This document shows, piece after piece, positions 14,744 to 62,131 of a DNA stretch of 64,000 nucleotides. The DNA lies in contig CAWDPX010000017.1 in assembly GCA_963804345.1 (NCBI GenBank), positions 30,673 to 94,672 of the forward strand, read 5' to 3'. Below the pieces are notes generated by a model, which searched no databases, was not told the origin of the DNA, and saw only the letters and a program-made list of their open reading frames with translations. Both the position numbers and the translations under genes were made by a program. Source of the stretch: an uncultured Verrucomicrobiae bacterium. Its GTDB lineage: Bacteria; Verrucomicrobiota; Verrucomicrobiia; Limisphaerales; UBA11358. Numbering within the stretch: position 1 is the stretch's first letter; every line of letters starts with the position of its first letter.

Positions 14744-17575
14744 ATGAAACAGCCTGACAAGTTTGGTTGCGCGTGTGCGATTGGCCTGACGCTTCTTTTT
14801 TCGTCAATCATCTCCGTTCCCGCCGCCGATGACGCGCTCGCGTGGCCGCCCGTCACCGCCCAGACCAGGCCGTGGGCGTTCTGGTGGTGGATGGGCAGCG
14901 CGGTGGACAAAACGAACATCACGAAGGAACTCACCCGCTACTACGCCGCCGGTCTCGGCGGCGTCCACATCATCCCGATTTACGGCGCGAAGGGCTTTGA
15001 ATCGAACTACATCAGCTATCTCTCGCCAAAATGGATGGAGATGATGGGCTGGTCGGTCGCCGAGGCGAACCGGCTTGGCATGGGGGTGGACATGACGACC
15101 GGCACCGGCTGGTGTTTCGGCGGCCCGCAGGTTTCGGATCAGGATGCGAACGCCAGCGTCGTCGTGAAAACCTACGACCTTGGCGCGGGCGAAAGACTGA
15201 AAGAAAAATTCAACCGCAAATCCATCCAGGCGCTCGTCGCCTTCGGGCCGGACGGAAAATCCATTGACCTGACCGACTCCATTTCCACCAATGGCGAAGT
15301 GGATTTCTCGCCGCCGGGCGGCAAGTGGACAATCTACGCCATCTCGCAAAAACCCTCCGGACAGAAAGTAAAACGGCCCGCGCCCGGCGGCGAAGGCTGG
15401 ATGCTCAACCTGATTTATCCGCCGGCGATGGACGATTTTCTCAAGCCGTTCACCGCCGCGTTTGTCGGTTACACCGGCCCGAAACCGCGCGCCCAGTTCC
15501 AGGATTCCTACGAGTATCGTTCCGACTGGTCGCCCAATTTTTTTGCCGAGTTTGAAAAACGGCGCGGCTACAAATTGCAGACCGAACTGCCGGCACTGTT
15601 CGGCACGAACGCCGACGACCACGCCGCGCGCGTGAAATGCGACTACCGCCAGACCGTCTCCGAAATCATGGCCGAGGAATCGCTGCCCGCGTGGACGAAA
15701 TGGTCGCACGAACACGGCTTCATCACGCGCGACCAGGCGCACGGTTCGCCTGGCAACTGGCTCGACCTTTACGCCGCCGCCGACATCCCCGAAACGGAAA
15801 TGTTTCACACCGACCGCAACAAATTGATTTCCAAATTCGCGTCGTCCGCCGCGCACGTCACCGGCAAGCCGCTCGTCAGTTCCGAGACCGGCACCTGGCT
15901 GGCGGAACATTTCACCGAGAAGCTTTCCGACGTGAAATATCTCTTCGACGACATGTTTCTGTCCGGAATCAACCACATATTTTATCACGGCTGCTGCTAT
16001 TCGCCCGACGAGGCCGGCTGGCCCGGCTGGCATTTTTACGCCTCAACGGAAATGAACCCGCGCAACTCCATCTGGCGCGACGCCGACGCCGTCAACGCCT
16101 ACGCCGCGCGCTGCCAGTCCATTTTGCAATCCGGCCAGCCGGACAACGACATTTTGCTCTACTGGAACATTTCGGATTTCTGGATGCAGCCTGGCGACAA
16201 GCTGCTGCCGCACCTCACCGTCCACGCGCGCGACTGGTTCGAGGGCCAGCCCATCGGCAAAATGGCGCAACGACTTTGGAGTGAAGGGTTCGCTTTTGAC
16301 TACGTCTCCGATGCACAACTGAAAACAGCTAAAGTTGTTGACGGAAAAATCCAGATGCCCGGCGGAAATTACAAAGTTATTGTGGTGCCATGGTGTAAAT
16401 ACATGCCGTTTGAAACCTTCACAAATTTAGTAACCCTCGAAAAAATGGGAGCAACAATCATTGTTCAAAATCCAACATGCAATGCTTCGGGCTTAGATGA
16501 TTTCAAAGAGCGAACTGATGAAATGGTGAATCTTTGGACGGACGACCTCCGTTTGGATAATCTTCGATTTGGCGGCGGAAAATTAGGTGACACAAATGCC
16601 TTTGGTTTTGCATTCAACACAAACGGCGCTGGTAAGATTATTCTACCGGAAGGCACAGTTGCAGCGTATGGATATGCACTGAACTACGTTGGAGCAGTCC
16701 AGGAGGCGATGGTGGAAAGCGGTCTGTCCTTTGTCCGCCGTTCATTCGAAGGCGGCTGCAATTATTTCATCGCCAACCGCGCTGAAGCCAATTTCGACGG
16801 CTGGATTTCTCTCGCCCGTCCTGCCAAGTCCCTTGTCATTCTTGATCCAATGACCGGCAATTCCGGCGTAGCGGCGACTCGGCAGAGCGCCGCAAACTCA
16901 ACCGAAATTCATCTGCAACTTGCCGCTGGCGAGTCCGTGATTCTCCGCGCCTTTGCCGACAAAAAAGTAGAAGGCCCGGCTTGGAATTATTGGCAGCCCC
17001 AGACGCCAGACGCCAAACCCCAGACCCTGACCGGCCCGTGGAACGTGAAATTCATCCTCGGCGGCCCGACGCTGCCGGCGGATTTTCAAACCGCCAGGCT
17101 CGCCTCGTGGACGACGTTCCCCGACACGAACACGCAAGCCTTCGCCGGCACCGCGAAATACGAGACCACGTTTGATGCGCCTCGGAGGGACGAGTTACAC
17201 GAGTCCCCAAACCAAGAATCAAAGACAGGGACTCGCGGCGCTCGTCCCTCTGATAATTTTTATCTCGATCTCGGCGACGTGCGCCAGAGCGCGCGGGTGC
17301 GCGTGAACGGCAAGGATTACGGCACACTCATCACGCCGCCGTTCCGCGTGGTCGTTGACAATCTGAAGCCGGCCGGCAACCAGCTCGAAGTGGAAGTCAC
17401 CAGCGTCGCCGCCAACCGCATCCGCGACCTGGACCGGCGCGGCGTGCCGTGGAAAAATTTCCGCGACATCAACATTGTGGACATCAATTATAAACCCTTC
17501 GACGCCTCCAACTGGCCACTCACCGATTGCGGTTTGCTTGGGCCGGTGACATTGACGGCAGTAACGGCAAAATGA
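14744..17575 (+). CDS. Secreted glycoside hydrolase, GH106 (alpha-L-rhamnosidase-like)
   Basis: Motifs RPWAFWWWMG, AGLGGVHIIPIYG, GTGWCFGGP, DSYE, DIPETE and SSETGTW, with a C-terminal sugar-binding domain (LDLGDV..ARVRVNG..GLLGPV). Confidence 0.85.
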   Translation: MKQPDKFGCACAIGLTLLFSSIISVPAADDALAWPPVTAQTRPWAFWWWMGSAVDKTNITKELTRYYAAGLGGVHIIPIYGAKGFESNYISYLSPKWMEMMGWSVAEANRLGMGVDMTTGTGWCFGGPQVSDQDANASVVVKTYDLGAGERLKEKFNRKSIQALVAFGPDGKSIDLTDSISTNGEVDFSPPGGKWTIYAISQKPSGQKVKRPAPGGEGWMLNLIYPPAMDDFLKPFTAAFVGYTGPKPRAQFQDSYEYRSDWSPNFFAEFEKRRGYKLQTELPALFGTNADDHAARVKCDYRQTVSEIMAEESLPAWTKWSHEHGFITRDQAHGSPGNWLDLYAAADIPETEMFHTDRNKLISKFASSAAHVTGKPLVSSETGTWLAEHFTEKLSDVKYLFDDMFLSGINHIFYHGCCYSPDEAGWPGWHFYASTEMNPRNSIWRDADAVNAYAARCQSILQSGQPDNDILLYWNISDFWMQPGDKLLPHLTVHARDWFEGQPIGKMAQRLWSEGFAFDYVSDAQLKTAKVVDGKIQMPGGNYKVIVVPWCKYMPFETFTNLVTLEKMGATIIVQNPTCNASGLDDFKERTDEMVNLWTDDLRLDNLRFGGGKLGDTNAFGFAFNTNGAGKIILPEGTVAAYGYALNYVGAVQEAMVESGLSFVRRSFEGGCNYFIANRAEANFDGWISLARPAKSLVILDPMTGNSGVAATRQSAANSTEIHLQLAAGESVILRAFADKKVEGPAWNYWQPQTPDAKPQTLTGPWNVKFILGGPTLPADFQTARLASWTTFPDTNTQAFAGTAKYETTFDAPRRDELHESPNQESKTGTRGARPSDNFYLDLGDVRQSARVRVNGKDYGTLITPPFRVVVDNLKPAGNQLEVEVTSVAANRIRDLDRRGVPWKNFRDINIVDINYKPFDASNWPLTDCGLLGPVTLTAVTAK
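17183..17253. repeat. Palindromic element inserted in frame in the GH106 gene
   Basis: Inverted arms GAGGGACGAG..CGAGTCCC and GGGACTCG..CTCGTCCCTC, translated as RRDELHESPNQESKTGTRGARPS. Confidence 0.85.
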
Positions 17576-17576
17576 T

Positions 17577-17867
17577 GGAGATGTGCCCGTCCTCGGGCGC
17601 GGCAACCGGCTTCATTCAACCCGAATTTCGAAGCTGGCCTGAGCGTAGCGGCGACGCCTCGTCGCAGAAAGGTGCAGGCGACGCCCTCGTCGCCAGTTGC
17701 GGCGGCGATTATGCCGCTGCCGGGAAAAATGCGACGGGGGCGTCGCTATCACCCTGTGGCGACGAGGCGTCGCCGCTACTTTCGGCTGACCGCTTCGGAG
17801 TTCGGGTTCAACTGAACATTTTCCAATCGCCCGCCTCACTTGGCTGCGGCAGGGATGGCCGCACTCC
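17577..17867. repeat. Nested REP-like composite
   Basis: Inner perfect inverted repeat GTAGCGGCGACGCCTCGTCGC (17645) / GCGACGAGGCGTCGCCGCTAC (ends 17779), inside a degenerate outer GGAG..CTCC pair. Confidence 0.8.
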
Positions 17868-17953
17868 GCCAACGCAGAAATGCGAACGTTGGCTGACTGG
17901 GAGCCATAATCAGGCGCTTTTATTCGCAGCCAGCTTTGTCCGCCCCGAATTCG

Positions 17954-18352
17954 TCATTCGTAATCGGCGAGGATTTTCAACCCTTCGGGATCGGCGATGT
18001 CCTGGCCTTGAAGGAGGACAACGTGCCGATATCCGAGGTTCCGCAAGCTGACGAGCCAGTATGTGCCGCGGTCGCGAAACTGGTCACCAATCTGCGATTC
18101 CGTGTAATTCTCAAGAATGACCACGGCGGTTTCGCTTTTGGGCAGTGCCGCGGCCCTCGCCAAAAACTTGTCGTTGGCTTCGCTCGCAGAAGCGTCCGGT
18201 CGGAGCATCCGGCAGGTCTGGTTGTCCAGGGAGTCAATGACCAATGCCGTATTGTCGTAGCTGTGAAACGTCCGCGGCGGTGTCGCGCAGGAGGTCGAGA
18301 TGATGGCCAAAGCCACAAGGGCCAGGGTGGTGCTGATGTTCAATGATTTCAT
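17954..18352 (-). CDS. Small putative lipoprotein
   Basis: Hydrophobic leader ending in a lipobox-like STS-C. Confidence 0.7.
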   Translation of the reverse strand: MKSLNISTTLALVALAIISTSCATPPRTFHSYDNTALVIDSLDNQTCRMLRPDASASEANDKFLARAAALPKSETAVVILENYTESQIGDQFRDRGTYWLVSLRNLGYRHVVLLQGQDIADPEGLKILADYE

Positions 18353-18409
18353 ATGTTCCTGTCGGTAGATGCCTCAGTTTGATTTGCCTCTTTTTACCAC
18401 CGTCTCATG

Positions 18410-18425
18410 CGCAATTGCAATGCCA
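18410..18425 (-). promoter_or_regulatory. Candidate sigma54 (-24/-12) promoter
   Basis: Minus strand TGGCAT-TGCAA-TTGCG, about 60 bp upstream of the lipoprotein start. Confidence 0.55.
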
Positions 18426-18461
18426 TTGGTTTTGGGCCGATGCAATGCGGGCGCAACCAGA

Positions 18462-18778
18462 GGGCGTGTTGCCCAAATCATTTGGAACTGGCGGAGCGCG
18501 GCTGTCCCAGCCGCAGCACGTTCGACAACTACCATAACCCTGGAATTGGGTGCGCTCATCTGGCAATCCTGGCTGCTGCGGGTGGGATACCCGCGCTCCG
18601 TTCCATTTAAGCAACACGCCCCGGACACTCCCACGGTAGCGGCGGCCATCTCTGGCTGCCGTATCGCCCTGCTTCCAACCGGGTGGCCCCATGTAAGCTG
18701 GGCCATGGCGTAGTTTCGGTTTTATGGCCCGGGCGGCAGGGATGCCGCCGGATACGGCAGGCAGGATGCTGCCGCTAC
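18462..18778. repeat. Cluster of REP-like inverted repeats, nested and adjacent
   Basis: GGGCGTGTTG/CAACACGCCC encloses GGAGCGCGG..GCAGCA/TGCTGC..CCGCGCTCC, followed by GTAGCGGC..GCCGCTAC (18636-18778). Confidence 0.8.
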
Positions 18779-18812
18779 AGATCGGTGGCAATGTCCCGGT
18801 GGTTGGGCGTTG

Positions 18813-19679
18813 CTATTTTAACTTCGGGAAAAATTCCGCCGCCGTTTTGCACGTCGCCGCGCTCAACTCTTCGAGCGAACAAGCCTTCACTTGGGCGATG
18901 GTTTCGGAGATTTCCTTCACATAAGCCGGTTCGCAGCGCTTGCCGCGATACGGCACGGGCGCGAGATACGGACAGTCGGTTTCCAGCATGAATTTGTCCA
19001 GTGGCGTGGCGGCGACGATGTCGCGGACGTTTTGTCCGTTCTTGAACGTGACGATGCCGGTAAAACTGACGAGCGAGCCGATATCCAGGACGCGGCGCAT
19101 CCGGTCGGCGCTCTCGCCGAAGCAATGGAACACACCGCGCACGTTGCCGGCAAACGGCTTGAGCAGGGCGAAAGTGTCGTCAAAGGAGTCACGCTGGTGG
19201 ATCACGCAGTTCAGACCGGTTTCGCTGGCGACTTCCAACTGTTGCTGGAAAATTTCAGCCTGCTTCTGTTTGTAACGCGCGTCATCGGCAGCGGTGTCTG
19301 GAGCGCCGGTCTCCGACCCGGCGCGTTTCGCGGAGTCGCCTTTTCTCGCCGGTTCGGAGACCGATCCGCCGGGCAGGCGGTGATAATCCAGGCCGATTTC
19401 ACCGATGGCGACGACTTTTGGATGCTTCACCAGTTTGCGCAGCGGTTCGCGAATATCGTCCGGGGCTTCATGGGCGTTTGACGGATGCCAGCCGACGGCG
19501 GCAAAAACGCACTCGAAACGTTCGGCCAGCTTGATGGCGTGCATGCTGCTTTCGAGATCGGTGCCGATGGAAATGATTCGGGTGATGCCGGCGGCCTGGG
19601 CGCGGGTAATGACTTCTGTCATATCCTTGGCGTAGTCCGGGTAATCCAGATGCGCGTGGGTGTCGTAAAAACTGGCCAT
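18813..19679 (-). CDS. tatD: TatD family DNase with an internal in-frame insertion
   Basis: Motifs DTHAHLD, AVGWHP, AIGEIGLDY, IHQR, VFHCF and LETDCPYLAP. Confidence 0.93.
   Translation of the reverse strand: MASFYDTHAHLDYPDYAKDMTEVITRAQAAGITRIISIGTDLESSMHAIKLAERFECVFAAVGWHPSNAHEAPDDIREPLRKLVKHPKVVAIGEIGLDYHRLPGGSVSEPARKGDSAKRAGSETGAPDTAADDARYKQKQAEIFQQQLEVASETGLNCVIHQRDSFDDTFALLKPFAGNVRGVFHCFGESADRMRRVLDIGSLVSFTGIVTFKNGQNVRDIVAATPLDKFMLETDCPYLAPVPYRGKRCEPAYVKEISETIAQVKACSLEELSAATCKTAAEFFPKLK
19300..19368. repeat. Palindromic element in frame in tatD
   Basis: GGAGCGCCGGTCTCCGACCCGGC ... GCCGGTTCGGAGACCG, translated as GSVSEPARKGDSAKRAGSETGAP. Confidence 0.85.
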
Positions 19680-19709
19680 AATATTCAGGGGGCAGGGAAT
19701 CCTTTTAGA

Positions 19710-19801
19710 AACATCGAACATCCAACATCGAACGCTGAACATCGAATAACACGCCGCTGATCTTCATTCGGAGTTCGATGTTGAATGTTGGATGTTCGAG
19801 G
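19710..19801. repeat. Inverted heptamer tandem-repeat element
   Basis: (AACATCG/AACATCC)n facing (CGATGTT/GGATGTT)n. Confidence 0.85.
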
Positions 19802-19819
19802 TTCTGTCACGGGGAAAGG

Positions 19820-21448
19820 CTATGGCTTGGCCGGAGCATTGGTGCCGGTGAGTTTTTGTTCGAGCGCGGCCAGTCTGGCCTCGACGGATGCCTTGCCGGG
19901 GTAATCGGGTGATTCCTGGAGAAGCTGTTTGTATTTTTCCAGGGCGTCGGCTTCGCGGTTCTGCGCCAGAAGTTTTTCGCCCAGCGTTAGCCGGATGCGA
20001 ATGCGCTGTTCCGGCGACGGGTTGCGGGTCAGGGCGAGTTGATACGTTTCAATGGCTGAAGACGGTTTGCCCTGCATTTCGTAAAGGTCGGCGAGTTTTT
20101 CGGTGAGCACGGCGCTACTGGTGGTTGCGGGAATGGTTTCGAGGAATGCGGCGAGCTGGGCCGCGGGCGTGCCGTGAACCAGACCCAAATCCACGATGCG
20201 CAGATAAGACCATTCGATCAGCGGGTTGTGGGTGCGCGCGAATTCCGCGTGCAGCGCCGACGGTTCCCGGCCAAAGGGCCGGTAAAGCGGGTCGCCGACG
20301 ACGGTGGTTTGCCAGGATAAAACGGGTTGCGCGGCCCAGGCGGCCTCGCCAAACGTGAATCCGCCGGCAATCAGCCGCGCGAGAAAGGCGTAAACATTGG
20401 GTGTGCAGGAGAGATACGGCTCGTTGACGCAGCCCATGGTGCAGGTCGCTCCTTTGGCAAGCAGCGGCCCGGCCCAAAACTGGTTCGTGCTCCGCAACGT
20501 GGACGCGCTGTAGGAATGCAGATGATACGCGAACGCGCCGGGCATGAATTCAACTTTGGGCAGCGTAAACGGGCCGCTGACGTATTCATCATACCAGCCG
20601 CAATAAATGGCGATCTGGCTCATCGGAAAATCGGCGGGAAACGTGGCGGGATTTTTGTCCACGGTTGTTTCAAAACCCAGTTGGCGGCAGATTTCTGCCG
20701 CTCCCAGGATCCATTCGTCGCCCAAAATATAATTGGTGTCGGTTTGGGGCAGTCCGCGCGCGTCGAAGTAGGCGCGGCCCCACAAGCCGTCGCGTTCGGC
20801 GGCGAGCGCCTTGTCCACCAGACCGCGCGCAATCTCCACACTGGGGCCGTCGAGCCGGGCCACCAGCAAAATGCCGTTGGTGGGATGGAGCAGCGCCGGG
20901 TTGGTGACGCCATAAACCCAGTTGGGCAGCGGTCCGGAAAGCGGGACGTTCATTTTCACCAGCGGCAGCCAGGCCAGCTCGGAATCCACCGCCGCTTCAT
21001 TGCGCAACATTTCCGGACGGGCGTTTTCCCGGCCCGGTTCGTGCAAATTCGGGTCGGCGGCAATCTTCAGCGGAACGCCCCAGCACAGGACAGCGTAGCG
21101 GATTTTGGATTCAACGACCGGGTGGTCCACGCGTGGGGGCTGGCCGTTGGTCGCGGCGTTGGTCACGGAACCAAACCGCCAGAGCTTGTCCACCAAGAGC
21201 CGGCTGGCCAGCGGATATTGCAGCCCGTCGCGAAACTCGGCGCGCGTCATCTCCTCGGTGATGGGCAGATCAAACCCGTAAATTTGCGTCTCCGGCACCT
21301 GCCGCATTCGGGCGTAATGCTCCGCCACCACTTTCGACCCGGCCAGGCGGGTGTTGTAAATCACGACCACCTCGTCGCCGCCGGCATGGACCAGCCACGG
21401 CGCGAACGCAAGGAGAAGAACTGTAAATTTAATCCCCAATATTTTCAT
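19820..21448 (-). CDS. TIGR03790-like exported protein with a C-terminal TPR
   Basis: Signal peptide and motifs VVVIYN, GVPLKI, AAVDSEL, LVARLDG, FMPGAFAYHLHS, GCVNEPYL and VVGDPLYRPF. Confidence 0.85.
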   Translation of the reverse strand: MKILGIKFTVLLLAFAPWLVHAGGDEVVVIYNTRLAGSKVVAEHYARMRQVPETQIYGFDLPITEEMTRAEFRDGLQYPLASRLLVDKLWRFGSVTNAATNGQPPRVDHPVVESKIRYAVLCWGVPLKIAADPNLHEPGRENARPEMLRNEAAVDSELAWLPLVKMNVPLSGPLPNWVYGVTNPALLHPTNGILLVARLDGPSVEIARGLVDKALAAERDGLWGRAYFDARGLPQTDTNYILGDEWILGAAEICRQLGFETTVDKNPATFPADFPMSQIAIYCGWYDEYVSGPFTLPKVEFMPGAFAYHLHSYSASTLRSTNQFWAGPLLAKGATCTMGCVNEPYLSCTPNVYAFLARLIAGGFTFGEAAWAAQPVLSWQTTVVGDPLYRPFGREPSALHAEFARTHNPLIEWSYLRIVDLGLVHGTPAAQLAAFLETIPATTSSAVLTEKLADLYEMQGKPSSAIETYQLALTRNPSPEQRIRIRLTLGEKLLAQNREADALEKYKQLLQESPDYPGKASVEARLAALEQKLTGTNAPAKP

Positions 21449-21497
21449 GCATCCTTCATTTGACCTTCAACGGACCGGAACGTTGGAATTTTGTGTC

Positions 21498-22283
21498 CTA
21501 GGCACCGCATGTCACCTGGAGGCCATCATACGCGAGCATCACTCCGGATGGCAATTCCGCCTGCGCCCGGTCGTGGTCGTAATCGTGCGTGAGGTGTGTG
21601 AAATAGGTCCGCGCCGCGCCGATGCGCCGCGCCGCCGCCAGCGCTTCGTCGAGGCACATGTGGGTCGGATGCGGCTGGTAACGCAGCGCGTCGAGCACGG
21701 CGACTTCGACGTCCTGGACCTTTTCCAGCGCGTCGACGGGGATTTCCTTGCAGTCGCTGAGATACGCGAGCCGTTTTTTGCCGTTTTGCATGAAGAGATA
21801 GCCATTCGTCATCGTCGAGCCGTGCGGCAGGGGCAGGGGAATGATTTCCAAATCGCCCAGGGTGAATGTTCCGGCTATGACGTGGGGTTCGGGGCGGAAA
21901 TAGCCTTTCGGAATTGTCCGCCCGTCAAACGCATAGATGAAAATACGCCGAAGCGCCGCCATCGTTTCCGCGTTCGCATAAATCGGCAACGCACCTTTGC
22001 GCAAATCGCAAAACCGGCGGCAATCGTCCAGACCCATGATGTGATCGGCATGGGAATGGGTGAAAACAACCGCATCAAGCCAGCGGATGTTTTCGCGCAG
22101 GCACTGGATGCGAAATTCCGGCGTCGTATCCACGACGAACTTGACCTGGTCCGTGGCGATGTAAATGGAAGGCCGGGTGCGATGGTTTTTGGGATTGGCC
22201 AGGAATTCCGGTGGGTATTCCTGGCCGATGAGGGGCACGCCCTGCGACGTGCCGCTGCCGAGAAAAATGAATGAAAACGACAT
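21498..22283 (-). CDS. MBL-fold metallo-hydrolase (PhnP-like)
   Basis: [11 protein letters not shown] and [10 protein letters not shown] (HxHxDH). Confidence 0.9.
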
Positions 22284-22327
22284 GATTAAAATTTTCTTTC
22301 GTTGCTGGCTTCCAGCCTATTCAATTC

Positions 22328-22561
22328 AACCACGGATGCACACGGATAAACATAATGCGTTTTGCGTGGCGACTGCTGGTATGGACTGCGGCGGGAAGCG
22401 AAGCGCCACGCCGCTTTCGGAAACCATCACGCAAAAAGCGGTGCCGCCGCTGTCCACCCTCCGCAGTATTGCTACGGAGGACGGGCACTCCAGTCTTCGC
22501 TGCGCTTCGCCTCGGCAGGCTGCCACGGCAGTCCAAATTTTATCCGTGTCCATCCGTGGTT
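22328..22561. repeat. Multi-layer nested palindromic element between divergent genes
   Basis: Outer AACCACGGATGCACACGGAT / ATCCGTGTCCATCCGTGGTT, middle TGGACTGC..GCAGTCCA, inner CCTCCGCAGTATTGCTACGGAGG. Confidence 0.85.
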
Positions 22562-22589
22562 GTAAGATTTACCGGGACAAAATCTAACC

Positions 22590-24410
22590 ATGTTGACGAC
22601 GCTACGCATCAAAAACCTCGCGCTGGTGCCGGACTTGACGCTCGAACTCCAGCCCGGTTGCAATGTCATCACCGGCGAGACCGGCGCGGGCAAATCCATC
22701 ATCATCGGCGCGCTCAATCTCGTCCTGGGCGAACGCGCCGACCGTTCGCTCATCCGCACCGGGGAGGATAGTTGCTCGGTCGAGGCCGTGTTCGACGTCA
22801 CGGAATTGCACGTCAACCGACGCGGAGCGCCGGCCTCCGGCACGGCTCGACAGGGCGGCGATTTGAAACACGCCGTACCGGAGGCCGGCGCTCCCTCGCA
22901 ACTGGGAAAATATCTGGAGGAAAACGGCCTGGAGCCGTGCGAGGCGAATCAGCTCGTCCTCAAACGCACCTTCACCGCCGGTGGCACGAACCGCCAGTTC
23001 GTCAACGGCTCGGCCACCACCCTGAACGTCCTGGCGGCGATTGGCGAATGGCTCGTGGACATGCACGGCCCGCACGACCACCAGTCGCTTCTGCATCCCG
23101 CGAAGCAACTCGCCATTCTCGATGCGTTCGGCAATTTGGAAAGGGAGCGGGCGGTGTTTGGCGGATTGGTTCAACGCCGCGCCGCGCTCGAAGGCGAAAA
23201 ATCCGCGCTCGTTGTGGATGAGAAAACCTACGCGCAGCAACTGGACCTGCTGCGTTTTCAAGTGAACGAAATTTCCAGCGCCCGGCTTCAGCCCGGCGAA
23301 GATGAAGGGGTTGAGGAAAAATTCCAGCGCGCGAGCAACGCAGCGAAGCTGTTGCAATTAAGCCAGGCCGCGCTGGATGTGCTGGACGGGAACGACCCTT
23401 CATTGCTCACCCAGGCTGGCGCGGTGGGCCGCACGTTGCAGGAATTGCGGCGCGTGGACGCGGGCGCGGACACGCTGGTTGAATTGCACGGGCAGGCGGC
23501 ATCGGCGCTGCGCGAATTGCAGTCCGGGCTTTCGCGTTACGCGGAAAAAGTGGACGTTGACCCCGCGCAACTTCAACGGCTCGAGGAACGGCTTGATCGC
23601 CTCCACTCCCTCAAGCGCAAATACGGCGCGACACTCGCCGAGGTTATCGCGTTCGGCGACGATGCAAAACGCCGGCTCGCGAGCCTCGAACAGCGCGATG
23701 GCGAACTGGCCCGGCTCAATGGTGAATTGCAAAAATTGGATGCGGAACTGTTGCGTGCGGGCAAAGAACTTTCCGCCAAACGGCGCAAAATTATTCCGCA
23801 GCTCGCGAAGGCCGTGGGCAAACAACTCGATGATTTGGGATTCAAGCAAAGCAAATTTGACGTGGCCATCAACTCCGTAGCAGCGGACGTTAGTCCGCTC
23901 CATCTTGTCGAAAGCAATGTTAGAGCCGACTCACGTCGGCTGCTACAGTTCAGCGGTTCGTCACTTTCTTCCACCGGCTTCGATCAGATTGAATTTCAAT
24001 TTGCTCCCAATCCGGGCGAACCCGCCAAGCCGCTCCGCGCCATCGCGTCGTCCGGTGAAATGGCGCGCGTGATGCTGGCGCTCAAAACCGTGCTGGCGGT
24101 GGAAGACGAAATCCCGGTGCTGATTTTTGATGAAGTGGACGCGAACATTGGCGGCGAGACGGCTAATGTGGTCGGTGAAAAGATGAAGCAAATTGCCGTC
24201 CGGCGGCAGGTGTTGTGCATCACGCATCTGCCGCAGGTGGCCGCGGCCGCCGACGCGCATTACGTCGTGACCAAGCAGGTTGAGAATGGCCGGACGATTT
24301 CGGAAATCAGGTTGCTCGACAAAAAATCCCGCGTGACGGAACTGGCCCGAATGCTCGGCGGCCAGAGTGACGCCGCCCGGAAACACGCGGAGGCGTTGCT
24401 AAACGGATAA
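22590..24410 (+). CDS. recN: DNA repair protein RecN with two in-frame insertions
   Basis: Walker A ITGETGAGKS, signature IASSGEMARVMLA, Walker B LIFDEVD, and CITHLPQVAA. Confidence 0.95.
   Translation: MLTTLRIKNLALVPDLTLELQPGCNVITGETGAGKSIIIGALNLVLGERADRSLIRTGEDSCSVEAVFDVTELHVNRRGAPASGTARQGGDLKHAVPEAGAPSQLGKYLEENGLEPCEANQLVLKRTFTAGGTNRQFVNGSATTLNVLAAIGEWLVDMHGPHDHQSLLHPAKQLAILDAFGNLERERAVFGGLVQRRAALEGEKSALVVDEKTYAQQLDLLRFQVNEISSARLQPGEDEGVEEKFQRASNAAKLLQLSQAALDVLDGNDPSLLTQAGAVGRTLQELRRVDAGADTLVELHGQAASALRELQSGLSRYAEKVDVDPAQLQRLEERLDRLHSLKRKYGATLAEVIAFGDDAKRRLASLEQRDGELARLNGELQKLDAELLRAGKELSAKRRKIIPQLAKAVGKQLDDLGFKQSKFDVAINSVAADVSPLHLVESNVRADSRRLLQFSGSSLSSTGFDQIEFQFAPNPGEPAKPLRAIASSGEMARVMLALKTVLAVEDEIPVLIFDEVDANIGGETANVVGEKMKQIAVRRQVLCITHLPQVAAAADAHYVVTKQVENGRTISEIRLLDKKSRVTELARMLGGQSDAARKHAEALLNG
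22824..22894. repeat. Palindromic element in frame in recN (same family as the tatD insert)
   Basis: GGAGCGCCGGCCTCCGGCACGGC ... GCCGTACCGGAGGCCGGCGCTCC, translated as GAPASGTARQGGDLKHAVPEAGAP. Confidence 0.9.
23877..23946. repeat. GTAG-type REP-like doublet in frame in recN
   Basis: GTAGCAGCGGACGTTAGTCCGCTC ... GAGCCGACTCACGTCGGCTGCTAC, translated as VAADVSPLHLVESNVRADSRRLL. Confidence 0.9.
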
Positions 24411-24640
24411 TGCTTGGTAAACATTGAAACGCATCCAATTTCTCACGTCGCCGCCGTTTTTTACAGAAAACAAGCTGTCCTGCCGGTTTTCAGAAGTTAA
24501 AAACAGTAAAAATCCACGAAAATATGGATAATTGGATATGTGGCCCTTGTCACCAGAACTGGTGACTGGCAGGGGACCGGGCATGAGGTATGATTCCATT
24601 GTTGTTGCCGTTGTAATTTAGTTCTCAATTCTGTTTTAAG

Positions 24641-24674
24641 AGGCCGGACCTGTTGTCCGGCCTTTCTTTTTTTT
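24641..24674 (+). terminator. Rho-independent terminator
   Basis: AGGCCGGAC-CTGTT-GTCCGGCCT followed by a long T tract. Confidence 0.8.
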
Positions 24675-24958
24675 CAGCCGGCTCAATCTCCTGATTGGCA
24701 ATCACCCTGAGCCGGGAATCATATCATTTCCCAACCGGCAGGACCGCATGGGTGCGCGGTCATCATACCCGGCGACGCAGCCCTTGCACCTGTGCATCCT
24801 GTCGCCGCAACCGCGTGGCGCCTTGTCCATCGGCTTGTCGCGCAAAAGCGCAGCGCCGGCGGAAGTCCTGCATTCCGGGACAAAGTTGGAAGTTTTACGC
24901 GGCCGTGCGCATTCTCGCGATTGACCACTTGCCACCGCTCGGCTACGATGACTTGCCT

Positions 24959-25033
24959 GGCGTGTTCGTCTATCGGTTAGGACGCTGGATTCTCAATCCG
25001 GAAAGACGGGTTCGATTCCCGTACGCGCTACCA
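24959..25033 (+). tRNA. tRNA-Glu(CTC)
   Basis: 75 nt with acceptor stem GGCGTGT/ACGCGCT, anticodon loop TTCTCAA, T-arm GGTTCGATTCC and encoded CCA. Confidence 0.95.
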
Positions 25034-25081
25034 GTGTTTGGTTGAAGATGTAAAACCCAGCGGGGGCCAAGCCTCTTGACG

Positions 25082-25360
25082 GGGTTGAGGGCTGAGAGTT
25101 GGGAGATTCGGAAAGTTGAGTGTTGGGGCGCATTCAGGGGCACCGCCCCCGAATGCAACCGAATGGGAGCGCGGCTTGTCCCCAGCCGCAGCACTGGCAA
25201 ATGCAAGAGCCGGTTGGAAAGTTTTTTTATGAACCGGTCTCCGCGAATGGAGCTGCTGCGAGTTGGGACAACTCGCGCTCCGGCGAGCGTACCGATACGG
25301 TGTTCCTTTGCACCCGCGGCAACGCCGGCTTGACTTTCGGTCCGCAGCTTTCGACCCTCA
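25082..25360. repeat. Nested REP-like composite downstream of tRNA-Glu
   Basis: GGAGCGCGGCTTGTCCCCAGCCGCAGCA / TGCTGCGAGTTGGGACAACTCGCGCTCC (same family as 18493-18599), with degenerate flanking arms. Confidence 0.75.
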
Positions 25361-25374
25361 TCGCTCGAACAACT

Positions 25375-25743
25375 ATGAACACTTTCCAAATCATTTTTAC
25401 TCCAACCAGCGCCGCCGAGGTGGCGCGCATGCCCAAGGAACTGCAATTGCAAATCCTCGGCGAATTTCGCGGACTCCCCCAGCAGGCGCTCGGCACTGAA
25501 TTGGACGCCTTCGGCAAATTGGAGCTGGACGGGCGGACGTTGCACCGTTTTCGCGTGGGTGATTATCGCGTCTATTTTGAACGGCATGAATTGGGCGTGC
25601 TCGTCCACCGGATTCTCAGCCGCCACACGCTCAAGGATTTTCTGTTCCGTTCCGGCTTGAAGACCGGCGAGGACGAAGCGCTTCAGGAAAATCCCAAGTT
25701 TTGGGAATTGATCGAATCCGCCAAAACATCAGCCAAAACCTGA
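25375..25743 (+). CDS. RelE/ParE-fold protein
   Basis: FQIIFT..A..E at the N terminus and HRFRVGDYRVYF, plus a C-terminal extension. Confidence 0.7.
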   Translation: MNTFQIIFTPTSAAEVARMPKELQLQILGEFRGLPQQALGTELDAFGKLELDGRTLHRFRVGDYRVYFERHELGVLVHRILSRHTLKDFLFRSGLKTGEDEALQENPKFWELIESAKTSAKT

Positions 25744-25927
25744 ACGGTTTCAAAGCTTGTCAGGTTGGCAGAGGAAGTGCCTCCATCGATGGCGGCAGCG
25801 GCGGCAATTTCTTTTCAGCAATGCAAATGAGTCCGCCAATCCGTGAGGCCGCCCGGGTTCGCCGAAGAAATCTTTTGCCTGGTCTTCTCCGTGTGCATCC
25901 ACGGTAATTGAATGGATACGGCTTCAG

Positions 25928-26548
25928 CTATTCCACATCCTCGCCCAGCTCGACGTTCCAATAGGCCAGGTCAATGAAATGCTTCCAACTGTCGTGCCGG
26001 TGCAGGTTGAAATTGATCTGCACAAACGGACGCCATTTCGGGCGTTTGGGCTTGCGAACGAGGTGCATGCCGGCTTCCTGCGGCCGGCGGTTGGCTTTCT
26101 GCGTATTGCATTCGATGCAGGAACAAACAATATTTTCCCAGGTCGTCGGCCCGCCGCGATCGCGCGGAATGACGTGGTCCAGATTCAAATCCTTCCGGTC
26201 AAACACGCGCCCGCAATACTGGCAGGTGTTCTTGTCGCGCTCAAAAATGTTGTGGCGCGTGAACTTCACCTCCTTCTTGGGCATCCGCTCGTAAACGAAC
26301 AGCAGAATGATTCGCGGCACGCGAATGCGGAAGGAAATGGTGCGGACGGATTCCTCCTGCGGCGCGTTTGCGGAAATGTTGCGCCATTCCTGAAAATTGA
26401 AGGTGTGGAACGAGCCGTCCTCGGCGTTGACCACGACCTGGGCCTGGCCTTGAAACAACAGCGTGAGCGCGCGGCGGGCGGTGCAGACATTGACCGCCTG
26501 CCACAACCGGTTCAATACAAGCACATGCTGGTTTAGCGCGGTGTTCAT
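25928..26548 (-). CDS. HNH endonuclease (McrA-like)
   Basis: VLVLN, FTRHNIFERD..CQYCG, LDHVIPR..GG..WENIVCSC..CN..K. Confidence 0.9.
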   Translation of the reverse strand: MNTALNQHVLVLNRLWQAVNVCTARRALTLLFQGQAQVVVNAEDGSFHTFNFQEWRNISANAPQEESVRTISFRIRVPRIILLFVYERMPKKEVKFTRHNIFERDKNTCQYCGRVFDRKDLNLDHVIPRDRGGPTTWENIVCSCIECNTQKANRRPQEAGMHLVRKPKRPKWRPFVQINFNLHRHDSWKHFIDLAYWNVELGEDVE

Positions 26549-26804
26549 GGCGCTGATGGGGAAAATTAACAAAACCGCCGGGGCAGGTCAATGGCATCCA
26601 TGTGACCTGGCCCATTCCCAATTAAATGATTACGATTGAGGCCGGATTTTCCATCTCGCCGCGCGACCGGTTTGGTGGAGCGAGTCAGCGCCAGGGTGGG
26701 ATTTCCCCGAACAAATTCGCGCCTTGAACCCCGGAACCGGCGCTGCCGGGAAGTTCGTGGTGAAGAGAAACGGCTTTGGTTAATTCTGCGATGTTCAACG
26801 GAAC

Positions 26805-29363
26805 TCACCGCGCTGTTGGGGCTGGCTCATGATAGGTTTTGCCGGCCCGGTAGAGCTCAAGCAGTTGCCGGCTTTTCTCGGCCAGTTTTTTAGATCCGGC
26901 TGAGATTGCGAGCTGCTCCGCCTTTTCCGCCATCGTCACCGCGTCCGGAAAACGGCCCGCTTCGGCATAAGCGGCGGCCAGCGTCCTGATGAACAAGGGT
27001 TCGCCATAATGGGTCAGCTCGCACGCGCGTTCGGCCAAACGGACCGCCTCGGCCCCATTGCGAAGCTCGGCATCGGGATTGACGGCCAGCACCCACGCCA
27101 GGTTGTTCTGCGCCTCGGCGTAATTCGGACTGATCTGGATGGCCTTGCGAAAGTTCCCAATCGCTTCCTCAAACCGGCCCTTGTCGGCGAGGGCGGCCCC
27201 CAGGTTGTTCTGCGCCGCGACGAAATTCGGATTGATCTGGATGGCCTTGCGAAAGTTCCCGATCGCTTCCTCAAGCCGGTCCTCGGTGGCGAGGGCGGCC
27301 CCCAGGTTGTTCTGTGCCGCGGCGAAATTCGGATTGATCTGGATGGCCTTGCGATAGTTCTCAATTGCTTCCTCAAGCCGGCCTTGGGCGGCGAGGGCAT
27401 GGCCCAGGTTGTTCAGCGCTTCGGCGAAATTCGGATTGATCTGGACGGCCTTGCGAAAGTTCTCAATCGCTTCCTCCAACCGGCCCTTGTCGGCGAGGGC
27501 ATGGCCCAGGTTGTTCAGCGCCACGGCGAAATTCGGATTGACCTGGATGGCCTTGCGAAAGTTCCCAATCGCTTCCTCCAGCCGGCCCTTGTCGGCAAGG
27601 GCGATGCCCAGATTGTTCAGCGCCACGGCGAAATTCGGATTGATCTGGATGGCCTTGCGATAGTTCTCAATTGCTTCATCAAGCCGGCCTTGGGCGGCGA
27701 GGACATGGCCCAGGTTGTTTTGCGCTTCAGCGAAATTCGGATTGATCTGGATGGCCTGGTAATAATTCTCAATCGCTTCCTCCAACCGGCCCTTGGCGGC
27801 GAGGGCATGGCCCAGGTTGTTCAACGCTTCGGCGAAATTCGGATTGATCCGGATGGCCTTGCGAAAGTTCTCAATCGCTTCATCCATTTGGCCCTTGTCG
27901 GCGAGGGCGGCCCCCAGAGTGTCCATCACTTCGGGGGAATTCGGATTGCTCTGGAAGGCCCGATGGTAGTGTTCCATTGCCTCTTTAATGCGTCCCTGGT
28001 TCCGGAGCAAATTACCCAGATTGTTGTGGGCCAGCCAGCAATCCGGGTTCCCGGCCAGCGTCGCCCGCCAGAGGGTTTCCATGTCCGTGTACATTCCGGC
28101 CTGCCGCCAGGTCAGGAGGGCGAGCACCGGCAGCACAATGGCGGCAAATCCATAAACCACCGCCAGCCTGCGCCAGGATTCGGCCACCCGTACCACCAGC
28201 GCCGCCACCAGTGCGATGATCCCGAGCGCGGACAGATAAACCCAGTGATCCCACGCAAATGAATAACGCATGCCATACGCGTTCATGAATCCCAGCACCG
28301 GAAACAAGGTTCCCACATAAAAGAACAGCGCCGTCGCCGGCCCACGCCCAAGGCGCCCCCGGGCCAGCCAGAGCGTGAAAAGGGCGCCGATGGCGGTTAC
28401 CGGATAAAGCCATTGCCACCCCGAACCGGGTTCAGGCTGCCAGCGCGGGTAAACGAAGCAAAGCTTCGCCGGCCAAAACAGGTTGCCGAGGTAAAACCAG
28501 AACGCCCGCCCGGCAACCAGGCAGCGTTGCGGGAATGTCAGGTCAAAGTCCGGCCCTTCCGCACCGAGATGGTATTTCTCCAACCAGGCGGTTACGGCAC
28601 AAAGACCCAGGGCCAGGGCGAAGAAGGGCAGGGTTGGCAACACGTCCGCCCGCCACCGGATTTGTCCGCGTTGCCACCAACCGATCAACAGAATGGCCGC
28701 CGGCAACGAAAAGGTCGTCGTCTTGGCCAGCAACGCACAAAGAAACAAAACGAAAGCCAGTCCGTAAAAAAGTGACACTTGGCACGTGCCGCGTGACGGG
28801 TCAGGCACAGAAGTGACTTTTTGCGGTCCTGTCACCTGCCGCCTGCCACTTGCCACACCCTTCGCGTAGCGCAGGTAAGCCAGCCAGGCGCCGAGGTAAA
28901 AAACAAGCGAAAGAACATTTTTACGTTCGGTGATCCAGGCGACGGATTCAACCATGACCGGATGCAGCGCGAAGAGGGCACCGGCCAGCCAGGCGCCGGG
29001 CACCTGGAGCCGGAGCAACAACCGCCAGAAGAGCAGCGCGGCCAGCGCGTGCAGCAGGACGTTCTCCACGTGATAGGGGGTAGTCCAGAATTTCCAAAGT
29101 TGATAATCCAGCCAGAACGTCGTCCCCGAGAGCGGATAATACTGTTGCAGGGCGGTGGGCTGGAACCAGATCAAGCGCAGGCCGGAAGGGTCGCGTAACA
29201 AGCCGATTATATTCGTGGTCCACGAGTCGTCGTCCCAGACGAAACCGCCGCGCAGGGCGGGGAAATAGGCCAGGAAGACCAGGAGAACGATCAGGGCGCC
29301 CTGCCAAATCGGCAGCGTTCGTCCACGAATCAACATTCGCCCGGGGAAGGTCTTTTGTGGCAC
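26805..29363 (-). CDS. TMTC-like membrane glycosyltransferase (GT-C) with a TPR array
   Basis: GGFVWDD, YYPL, YH..NVLLH and HPVMVESVAWITERK, multiple TM segments, then near-identical 102-bp TPR repeats (about 27100-27900). Confidence 0.8.
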   Translation of the reverse strand: MPQKTFPGRMLIRGRTLPIWQGALIVLLVFLAYFPALRGGFVWDDDSWTTNIIGLLRDPSGLRLIWFQPTALQQYYPLSGTTFWLDYQLWKFWTTPYHVENVLLHALAALLFWRLLLRLQVPGAWLAGALFALHPVMVESVAWITERKNVLSLVFYLGAWLAYLRYAKGVASGRRQVTGPQKVTSVPDPSRGTCQVSLFYGLAFVLFLCALLAKTTTFSLPAAILLIGWWQRGQIRWRADVLPTLPFFALALGLCAVTAWLEKYHLGAEGPDFDLTFPQRCLVAGRAFWFYLGNLFWPAKLCFVYPRWQPEPGSGWQWLYPVTAIGALFTLWLARGRLGRGPATALFFYVGTLFPVLGFMNAYGMRYSFAWDHWVYLSALGIIALVAALVVRVAESWRRLAVVYGFAAIVLPVLALLTWRQAGMYTDMETLWRATLAGNPDCWLAHNNLGNLLRNQGRIKEAMEHYHRAFQSNPNSPEVMDTLGAALADKGQMDEAIENFRKAIRINPNFAEALNNLGHALAAKGRLEEAIENYYQAIQINPNFAEAQNNLGHVLAAQGRLDEAIENYRKAIQINPNFAVALNNLGIALADKGRLEEAIGNFRKAIQVNPNFAVALNNLGHALADKGRLEEAIENFRKAVQINPNFAEALNNLGHALAAQGRLEEAIENYRKAIQINPNFAAAQNNLGAALATEDRLEEAIGNFRKAIQINPNFVAAQNNLGAALADKGRFEEAIGNFRKAIQISPNYAEAQNNLAWVLAVNPDAELRNGAEAVRLAERACELTHYGEPLFIRTLAAAYAEAGRFPDAVTMAEKAEQLAISAGSKKLAEKSRQLLELYRAGKTYHEPAPTAR

Positions 29364-31310: not shown

Positions 31311-31361
31311 GGTAGGGCCGCGCTGCCGCGCGGCCAGGCGGAGCGGCAGCTCCGCCCTACC
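31311..31361. repeat. GTAG REP-like doublet
   Basis: GGTAGGGCCGCGCTGCCGC ... GCGGCAGCTCCGCCCTACC. Confidence 0.8.
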
Positions 31362-61981: not shown

Positions 61982-62131
61982 ACCGCGGATGGACACGAAT
62001 AAACCGGTAGGGCGCGTCACTCCGTGCGCGCCGCTGCACGACATTCCACAAACGGCGCGCACGGAGTAACGCGCCCTACCAACAGAATTCAGCCTGGTTT
62101 TCATCCGTGTGAATCCGTGTCTATCCATGGT
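61982..62131. repeat. Nested palindromic element inside the nif cluster
   Basis: Inner GGTAGGGCGCGTCACTCCGTGCGCGCCG / CGGCGCGCACGGAGTAACGCGCCCTACC (62006-62080) within the outer CGGATGGACACG / ATCCGTGT family also seen at 22328. Confidence 0.88.

Follow-up and report, generated by a model that had tools for sequence, protein, structure and literature searches.

The stretch of DNA analysed here, referred to as the window, comprises 64,000 nucleotides (nt) from the draft genome of a soil Verrucomicrobium of the order Limisphaerales (Verrucomicrobiota; G000:C17:30673-94672), an assembly of 4.64 Mb in 29 contigs that has a G+C content of 57.7% and is 88.9% complete. G000 denotes this genome, other G labels its relatives and L labels individual loci. 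Four palindromic elements lie in frame inside three genes of the window, encoding a GH106-family glycoside hydrolase, a TatD-family hydrolase and RecN, the last of which carries two (Table 1). All three host open reading frames (ORFs) are intact and matched by Pfam, and the inserts, whose frames run open without stops, are presumably translated with them. An earlier note, made from the letters of the window, had reported these four inverted-repeat elements in intact ORFs, and each was found where it had been placed. However, the region had been extended too far, to position 28860, since between 24400 and 29400 no palindrome of at least 14 nt with arms at most 80 nt apart was found, except for an overlapping one of 82% at 25433-25460.

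Table 1. Coordinates of the host genes, inserts and related features. Positions without a contig label refer to the window.
Feature	Position	Strand	Evidence or remarks
GH106-family glycoside hydrolase ORF (host gene 1), 956 aa	14705..17575	+	Pfam PF17132 Glyco_hydro_106, 1.2e-61
GH106 insert, in-frame palindromic doublet, arm GGAGGG[GA]CGAGTTACACGAG	17182..17253	+	inverted repeat, fold z-score, orthologue gap
TatD-family hydrolase ORF (host gene 2)	18813..19742	-	Pfam PF01026 TatD_DNase, 9e-78
TatD insert, in-frame palindromic doublet of the GGAGCGCCGG superfamily, one outer end degenerate	19300..19368	-	inverted repeat, orthologue gap
recN (host gene 3), 606 aa	22590..24410	+	Pfam SMC_N/AAA_23; RecN by its orthologues
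RecN insert 1, 84-nt block	22812..22895	+	12-nt leader, 71-nt GGAGCGCCGGCCTCCGG doublet (22824-22894) and one base
RecN insert 2	23877..23961	+	GTAG...CTAC doublet (23877-23946), family-conserved spacer, family-conserved tail of ~15 nt
Intergenic repeated palindrome downstream of GH106	17678..17746	.	median 12-mer count 13
Intergenic repeated palindrome	18503..18589	.	palindrome scan
Palindrome of AACATCGAACATCC-type short repeats, 5' edge of tatD	19710..19796	.	stem 30, 26 paired; 12-mer count up to 89
Intergenic GGTAGGGC...CCCTACC palindrome	31311..31361	.	palindrome scan
Intergenic GGTAGGGCGCG...CGCGCCCTACC doublet	62006..62080	.	stem 30, 28 paired
Free RAYT-like ORF	C7:654		repeats downstream
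Free RAYT-like ORF	C7:130250		between GTAG-type clusters
Free RAYT-like ORF	C9:100424		between inverted GGAGCGCGGCGTTCACGCCGC units
Free RAYT-like ORF, 258 aa	C4:53105-53881 (L174:206-982)		bracketed by three GGAGCGCC-type doublets
AlaRS with Y1_Tnp at 488-584, 1145 aa	G000:C6:152200-155637 (L172:701-4138)		27.2 bits; splits tRNA-synt_2c
PriA with Y1_Tnp at 255-347, 994 aa	G000:C21 (L173:335-3319)	-	27.5 bits
DnaE with Y1_Tnp at 1013-1083, 1477 aa	G000:C4:402621-407057 (L171)		21.4 bits, below the Pfam cut-off of 23

Each insert is a pair of inverted arms. The GH106 insert has arms of 26 nt (17182-17207 and 17228-17253) that are 81% complementary and folds at -42.9 kcal/mol (z -8.06), and the TatD insert has arms of 17 nt (19307-19323 and 19347-19363; 94%) and folds at -42.8 kcal/mol (z -3.64), with a GGAGCGCC end at 19300 left without its former partner. 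The arms of RecN insert 1 measure 23 nt (22824-22846 and 22872-22894; 96%) and those of RecN insert 2 measure 24 nt (23877-23900 and 23923-23946; 88%), with folds of -53.7 kcal/mol (z -6.18) and -37.8 kcal/mol (z -6.68), respectively. For every insert, none of the 200 shuffles from which the z-scores were derived folded as well. The GH106 insert encodes ...RRDELHES...GTRGARPS..., the TatD insert encodes ...SVSEPARKGDSAKRAGSETGAP... with the peptide ...AGSETGAP..., and RecN insert 1 yields ...GAPASG...PEAGAP.... The TatD and first RecN inserts, which both yield E[TA]GAP, had been assigned to one family, and they indeed share one superfamily; the four elements therefore represent three families and are unrelated only in part. 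The second RecN insert is of the GTAG type as claimed, carrying the GTAG tag (GTAG...CTAC), and 13 of the 22 doublets of its family are intergenic.

A comparison with orthologues, suggested as a check by the earlier note, places a gap at each palindrome, corresponding to 19 additional amino acids (aa) in GH106 and in TatD and to 28 and about 27 in RecN. RecN insert 1 (residues about 76-102) is absent in 16 of 19 relatives, while G011 has homologous peptide and DNA and G003 a different, GTAG-type palindrome at the same spot; the segment counts 42 residues in G000 against 14 in the common allele, a difference of 84 nt. RecN insert 2 falls in the linker that joins the coiled coil to the head's C-terminal half and brings its segment to 46 residues, the shortest alleles having 19-20. 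The TatD insert was missing from all 19 relatives; G000 has 45 residues against 26 in its 82%-identical relative G011, and the same loop holds another palindrome (GTTGGAGTTCA... type) in G010. Orthologues of GH106 are present in 10 of the 18 same-genus genomes searched. Its insert is common to G000, G004 and G005, where it adds 19 aa to the 26 residues of empty alleles, and is absent in five orthologues that are complete at the site (G008, G011, G014, G015 and G016); G001 has a different insert. G008 is empty, yet in the flanking columns it is as close to G000 as G004 is, which implies parallel insertion, loss or recombination at this site. The 19 relatives used for RecN and TatD probably overlap in genomes with the 81 RecN loci described below, so that the two sets of counts are not additive.

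All four inserts have further copies in the 4.64-Mb genome. Searches with blastn-short gave 56 matches for the GH106 insert, 13 for TatD, 31 for RecN insert 1 and 36 for RecN insert 2, and the arm motifs, allowing at most 3 mismatches over the whole genome, were found 163 times (GH106 type), 47 and 68 times (two cross-matching GGAGCGCCGG variants), 68 times (GTAGCAGC type, the family of RecN insert 2) and 46 times (GGAGCGCCGAGCACC). Every insert family has both intergenic and intragenic copies. The 50 GH106-type doublets comprise 29 intergenic ones, 11 inside ORFs with frame support (the ORF's own frame scoring best of six by codon usage on both flanks), 3 inside without it and 7 at ORF edges; the corresponding figures are 9, 11, 2 and 1 for the 23 GGAGCGCCGG-type doublets and 13, 6, 1 and 2 for the 22 GTAGCAGC-type doublets. 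Neither of the two outcomes that had been named as fatal to the proposal, orthologues with the same peptide segments but no palindromic DNA and inserts without other genomic copies, was observed. Conserved spacers occur only in the subfamily of RecN insert 2, whose 6 copies are 87-93% identical over 68-77 nt and share the same spacer and a conserved tail of ~15 nt, and in a 74-nt GH106-type subfamily. The latter (e.g. C19:43239-43312, C21:17348-17421 and C4:59019-59092) lies inside a larger unit, the outer inverted flanks of which (..gtctcaaaa.. / ..ttttgagac..) give a composite element of ~120 nt.

A gapless scan of the genome for inverted repeats (stem of at least 16, at least 85% paired, loop 3-70) found 597, as compared with 39 in a first-order Markov genome of equal length. 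Repeated arms are present in 410 of them, or 404 after removal of 6 copies in a multi-copy insertion sequence (IS) gene. Of these 404, 232 are intergenic and 56 lie at ORF edges; 75 are inside ORFs with both flanks supporting the frame and 41 are inside ORFs lacking that support, giving 75, and up to 116, intragenic palindromes (19-29%). Given a coding share of 82% of the DNA, this amounts to a roughly four-fold depletion of palindromes in genes. These figures are estimates, because the gene calls (3290 ORFs, 82% of bases) came from our own crude ORF and codon-usage finder, and they undercount bulged elements, since the GH106 insert itself, with its bulged stem, was overlooked by the gapless scan and confirmed by repeat search and folding. 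A census by frequent 14-mers was dropped, as GC-rich codon repeats swamped it (2454 'inside' islands, mostly non-palindromic). When Pfam was run on 20 of the 74 host ORFs outside the window, picked by a fixed index rule, 19 gave a match and one gave none. A single Pfam stretch spans the insert in eight (ProRS, PPDK_N, pseudouridine synthase, Mur ligase, XseA, Lnt, RecJ and IleRS), different domains flank it in three (GlmS, RF3 and LeuRS), the domain is split with the best stretch abutting the insert in five (U32 peptidase, DUF2851, two AcrB-type pumps and RlaP), and Pfam covers only one side in the remaining three. Each family is used in 3-5 of its six frames; frames with a stop in the consensus account for 0, 1 and 2 cases, and wherever such a frame is used, as in RecN insert 2, the stop is mutated.

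Predicted structures place the inserts of RecN and TatD in low-confidence coil. In the AlphaFold model of RecN (44-sequence alignment; mean predicted local distance difference test score, pLDDT, 83.7) the only segments below 50 are 79-101 and 435-457, which are the two inserts, both modelled as coil flanked by head-domain strands and helices. For TatD (20 sequences; mean pLDDT 93.0) the model shows a single weak stretch at residues 101-130 (block means 64/48/66), which holds the insert as coil between strand 89-98 and helix 130-154. No variation was seen in the alignments at the Walker A, signature and Walker B residues of RecN or at TatD's metal-site residues, and the GH106 insert lies in a stretch of varying length among paralogues and orthologues. 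With orthologue gaps, genomic copies and models, the three checks proposed by the earlier note, all in its favour, the claim that at least three repeat families invade protein loops is upheld as to families and loops, while their description as a generator of new peptide segments names a consequence rather than a function. TatD is numbered here from the ATG at 19679, its likely true start, where the orthologues begin. The ORF has a 21-codon 5' extension (MFSVRCWMFDV...) without counterpart in orthologues, which overlaps the AACATCGAACATCC-type palindrome (window 19680-19796); the word TTGAATGTTGAATG, related to the AACATCGAACATCC repeats, is the commonest 14-mer of the genome (105 copies). Contigs assembled from the reads of four runs represent relatives that are 90-99% alike, none of which bridged RecN insert 1 of this allele; one 151-nt contig from an RNA library covers 23855-23953 with 3 differences, although such libraries can contain DNA. 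The contigs thus lend support neither to transcription nor to removal of the inserts.

The turnover of the RecN inserts was followed in 81 loci, those of G000 and 80 relatives at 70% identity or more. At site 1 the 14-residue allele is found in 54 loci and an inserted segment of 19-63 residues in 25, of which 18 contain an inverted repeat of at least 12 paired bases by gapless scan; the palindromes form four recurrent families plus singletons, at least five families in all. At site 2, 58 loci have 32 residues or more and 36 of these have an inverted repeat. Five recurrent families were distinguished by peptide motif, an approximate classification, and at least five further distinct arms occur among 14 other alleles; the site holds at least six palindrome families in all. 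When a RecN tree was computed with the insert columns removed (79 rows, excluding L154 and L170), at least 20 state changes were required at site 1 and at least 49 at site 2, and empty alleles are nested among filled ones. In a well-supported clade of six species around G000, the site-1 insert is common to five, with L095, the sixth, holding another family, while at site 2 different families occupy five of the six, the two that share one being non-sisters. The shortest site-2 allele recurs nearly unchanged in distant clades (L110, L138 and L147), and the empty state is therefore either ancestral or precisely restored. The reading frame is open through both sites in 80 of the 81 loci, and none of the 83 inserted segments (25 at site 1 and 58 at site 2) breaks it. 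The exception, L170, has a single in-frame stop exactly at site 1 (..KLK*PLK..) in an allele without insert, which could reflect a pseudogene, a sequencing error or recoding.

In L095, the sister of L094, windowed DNA identity confines the switch of family at site 1 to ~100 codons around the site, pointing to either short-tract conversion or excision followed by re-insertion. The same locus has, at site 2, a 33-nt segment nested in the left arm of a GTAGGAGACGAGG-type doublet with the frame kept. A single nucleotide target at site 2 was rejected, as the insert positions differ among families by 6-21 nt from a common anchor; the hot spot is a permissive linker. Some 'empty' site-2 alleles (L135, L098, L012 and L013) hold short tandem-type repeats (SEISNFKSQI, TQLSTLNSQLS) and may derive from another repeat class, the truly minimal alleles being of 19-20 residues.

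Candidate movers are present in the genome. Among 13 Pfam Y1_Tnp matches, four of them IS200-like, are four free ORFs resembling the tyrosine transposases associated with repetitive extragenic palindromes (RAYTs and REPs, respectively), each with a HuH motif, a Y..NP.KA motif and its own repeats nearby. In work on E. coli, RAYTs reportedly cut and join REPs. The ORF at C4 carries one of its three GGAGCGCC-type doublets in frame, between its HuH and Tyr motifs, which corresponds exactly to subclass 2.4 as described by Quentin et al. 2018 (PMC6006769), where REPs lie inside tnpA-REP genes. With the GGAGCGCC doublets that bracket it, this ORF provides a candidate REPtron for the superfamily of the TatD and first RecN inserts, albeit at superfamily level, while the three other free RAYT-like ORFs accompany other families.

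Palindromes inside genes have precedents. The earlier note had correctly named the Rickettsia palindromic elements (RPEs; Ogata et al. 2000), which, according to the summary in a review of MITEs (miniature transposable elements with inverted repeats; PMC10969869, which also summarises intragenic ERIC elements), lie in frame in unrelated housekeeping genes at sites compatible with fold and function. There they are given as about 100-150 bp long and restricted to Rickettsia, each family reportedly encoding one conserved peptide. By that description the present inserts stand apart, being 57-84 nt long, read in several frames (3-5 per family) and co-occurring with RAYT genes. What had been overlooked is that intragenic REPs, including those of a verrucomicrobium and in repair genes, were published in 2013. 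Di Nocera, De Gregorio and Rocco (BMC Genomics 14:522) describe GTAG/CGTC REPs inside genes of several species, with O. terrae, a verrucomicrobium, having the largest GTAG number. Over half of these are reported to be dimers or groups, inserted in frame into known genes, which encode 20-30 aa, with repair and replication genes, tRNA synthetases and pseudouridine synthases over-represented. That paper also reports double insertions in one gene, several families per genome, family-specific REPtrons and different REPs at about the same site of Xanthomonas recB, and its authors place the inserts in flexible linkers; its main text does not mention recN. In common with the elements described here are in-frame palindrome dimers in known genes and a verrucomicrobium among the hosts, whereas two of the three families here lack the GTAG/CGTC tag. 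As both the Rickettsia (2000) and the GTAG/CGTC (2013) cases are published, the finding is of an already described kind and, as stated by the earlier note, is confirmatory, adding one more lineage. Beyond the published account, as far as it goes, are the dense species sampling (RecN loops with at least five and at least six families in 81 relatives) and the arms frozen at synonymous sites; the scale and the loop turnover are unusual, and together with the frozen arms and the in-frame transposase units discussed below they merit further study.

Taken together, the elements are very probably palindromes of the REP/REPIN type, moved in trans by RAYTs and carried as tolerated in-frame passengers. 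REPINs are described as essentially extragenic, whereas 19-29% of the repeated palindromes here lie inside ORFs, and most doublets here have non-conserved spacers. In REPIN-RAYT systems, inverted REP doublets forming one long hairpin occur in tens to hundreds per genome, and the cognate Y1 transposase, present in a single copy, has the same repeats on its flanks (Bertels and Rainey 2011, PMC3116915). Accordingly shaped elements are found here, in that the palindromes are short, imperfect and multi-copy (arms of 17-26 nt, 47-163 arm matches per family) and all four inserts form an inverted pair with one long hairpin. The inserts would be non-autonomous mobile palindromes, each with a spacer of 20-30 nt enclosed by two copies of a 17-26-nt repeat in inverted orientation, and would belong to three of ten or more such families filling this genome. 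RAYT-type Y1 (HUH) transposases would, most likely, move them in trans as single-stranded hairpins. Insertion could occur anywhere, with selection retaining the frame-preserving, stop-free copies in loops that tolerate extra residues, and the survivors would be read through, adding 19-28 disordered residues to RecN, TatD and GH106 and placing a stable hairpin (-38 to -54 kcal/mol) in the mRNA. They would thus be tolerated selfish passengers rather than adaptive modules. The parts of this proposal differ in strength: the tolerance of in-frame REP-type palindromes in disordered loops is well supported, their movement by RAYTs is what we infer from the genes present, and a benefit to the host is unlikely.

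Several findings weigh against REP-type passengers moved by RAYTs. Textbook REPINs are copied as a unit, which is seen in the subfamily of RecN insert 2 but not in most GGAGCGCC doublets, where arms and spacer length are shared and spacer sequences are unrelated. The GTAG/CGTC tag of classical REPs is missing in both the GGAGCGCC superfamily and the GH106-type family, and no RAYT was found in the genome adjoining the GTAGCAGC or the GH106-type family. Moreover, the RecN site-1 insert, which with a homologous spacer is common to G000 and six related species, varies in only 9 of 46 arm columns, as compared with 15 of 25 in the spacer and 45 of 76 in the flanks, and third codon positions vary at 1 of 14 in the arms against 21 of 26 in the flanks. 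Of the 22 pairs of its stem 14 never vary, and one has changed on both sides, CG to AU in two of the seven species, with pairing kept. Such frozen arms are compatible with selection on the hairpin, with recognition by the transposase or with gene conversion from other copies; they count against a purely passive passenger, because a passive one would vary unless homogenised or kept for transposase recognition.

The absence of the tag and of a RAYT beside the GH106-type family could also mean that the families without GTAG (GGAGCGCC..., GGAGGGGCGAGTTACACGAG...) are MITEs, IS deletion derivatives moved by a DDE transposase and not RAYT-dependent REPs, and the larger unit with outer inverted flanks around the 74-nt GH106-type subfamily points the same way. 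This is nevertheless unlikely, since no target-site duplication was seen in an informal inspection by eye of the flanks of 19, 17, 22 and 40 copies, the arms are hairpin repeats with variable spacers and not terminal repeats around a conserved core, and one RAYT-like ORF is bracketed by three GGAGCGCC-type doublets and carries one of them in frame. Somewhat less probable still is that the inserts are kept for a function, either as a peptide under selection or as a hairpin in mRNA or DNA by which translation, mRNA stability or replication-coupled repair of the host genes is adjusted. The nearly frozen arms among varying synonymous sites and the compensated stem pair would fit such a role, as would the recurrence here of the published repair and translation enrichment (RecN, RecJ, XseA, ProRS, IleRS, LeuRS and RF3). 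However, each family is read in several frames and so gives unrelated peptides, the family found in a given loop differs between sister species, with others having no insert there, the TatD insert is missing from the closest relative, the inserts are predicted to be disordered, and gene conversion among about 50-160 copies or recognition by the transposase would account for the conserved arms equally well.

Y1 transposases of the IS200/IS605 group excise precisely, and together with the empty alleles nested among filled ones on the RecN tree this lends some plausibility to removal of the inserts before the protein is made, whether by excision from the DNA of some cells, by RNA processing or by protein splicing. 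Constraints on frame and stops would then be needless, yet stop-bearing frames are avoided and not one of the RecN segments breaks the frame; in addition, no Hint/intein domain was found in the Pfam matches, and contigs from RNA and DNA runs that skip an insert spell the empty alleles of relatives and not clean joints, making such removal very improbable. An assembly artefact, in which repeats were mis-joined in a metagenome bin, is hardly credible: repeats do confuse assemblers and the genome is an incomplete draft in many contigs, but the sequences on either side of each insert are parts of one gene in a common frame, six other independently assembled genomes have the RecN site-1 insert with a homologous spacer, and the GH106 insert recurs in G004 and G005.

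Tolerated REP-type passengers thus remain the preferred reading, and the same genome has larger in-frame insertions outside the window, in which a RayT unit with a Y1_Tnp domain is embedded in AlaRS, PriA and DnaE (Table 1). The DnaE unit has the HuH motif and a Cys in place of the Tyr motif. All three units are bounded by inverted repeats, of 44 nt (89%) in AlaRS, 47 nt (83%, with GTAG...CTAC ends) in PriA and 34 nt (88%) in DnaE, and Pfam gives only host domains and PF01797 in the three proteins, with no Hint/intein domain. The embedded units presumably stay in the host protein. G000 has a single alaS, and the AlaRS unit is found at the same place in 6 of 31 relatives, the others matching only residues about 1-445 and 650-1144. 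No HUH motif was found in the AlaRS insert of G017, despite a 68%-identical stretch there, and a 1477-aa frame of G011 with a Y1 stretch (G011:C4:479531-480103, L190) was rejected as DnaE, as only the Y1 part aligns by blastp. The subfamily of the embedded domain occurs in 24 of 121 genomes drawn evenly from the order, with 32 of 33 matches in open frames of 579-1540 aa. In a public collection of protein clusters 1738 long proteins match at E<=1e-10, and the 120 listed of these are nearly all AlaRS with PF01797 inside, plus three MetH; these three cobalamin-dependent methionine synthases (P0014-P0016; 1648-1692 aa), with PF01797 among their domains, represent a fourth host.

One source names such proteins 'alanyl-tRNA synthetase/REP element-mobilizing transposase RayT', but no description of in-frame host-embedded RayT units was found in the literature searched, which leaves out most subscription journals and in which two RAYT survey papers were word-searched. 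Quentin et al. 2018 (PMC6006769) state that 'unexpectedly long proteins' were discarded as fusions or errors, and host-embedded units may have been among them. If true, the embedded units would be a new mode of existence for a transposase, and annotation pipelines in which such proteins count as fusions or errors would call for caution. They resemble inteins in working only, as a selfish nuclease-type domain in frame in essential replication and translation genes with a patchy distribution, and differ from them in lacking a Hint/splicing domain and in being bounded by inverted REPs at the DNA level.

A joint reading of palindromes and embedded units can be put forward tentatively, although we hold it somewhat more doubtful than probable. 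It proposes that the REP/RAYT system of this order has gone in-frame inside essential genes, with permissive loops serving as standing landing pads where one family takes the place of another between sister species, by short-tract conversion or through precise excision of the Y1 type with subsequent re-insertion. The arms would be constrained within the gene, and the units of RayT plus REPs with 34-47-nt inverted ends in the only alaS, in priA and in dnaE would be an intein-like refuge without splicing, because sloppy deletion cannot remove them there. With one and the same loop empty, filled or occupied by another family across hundreds of related genomes, rates of REP insertion, excision and replacement would become measurable for the first time, and the frozen synonymous sites in the arms allow asking whether intragenic copies stay active.

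Two further features of the window lie close to recN. Between recN and a large TPR protein, a 214-aa ORF on the minus strand (window 25928-26572) has an HNH endonuclease domain (PF14279/PF01844) and adjoins an ORF at 25120-25743, which itself has no Pfam match. In an ORF of metallo-beta-lactamase fold (21498-22283), a near-perfect palindrome of 36 nt (window 22194-22229) has arm 12-mer counts of 5 and 3 and is probably unrelated to the REP families, its arms being unrepeated in the genome.

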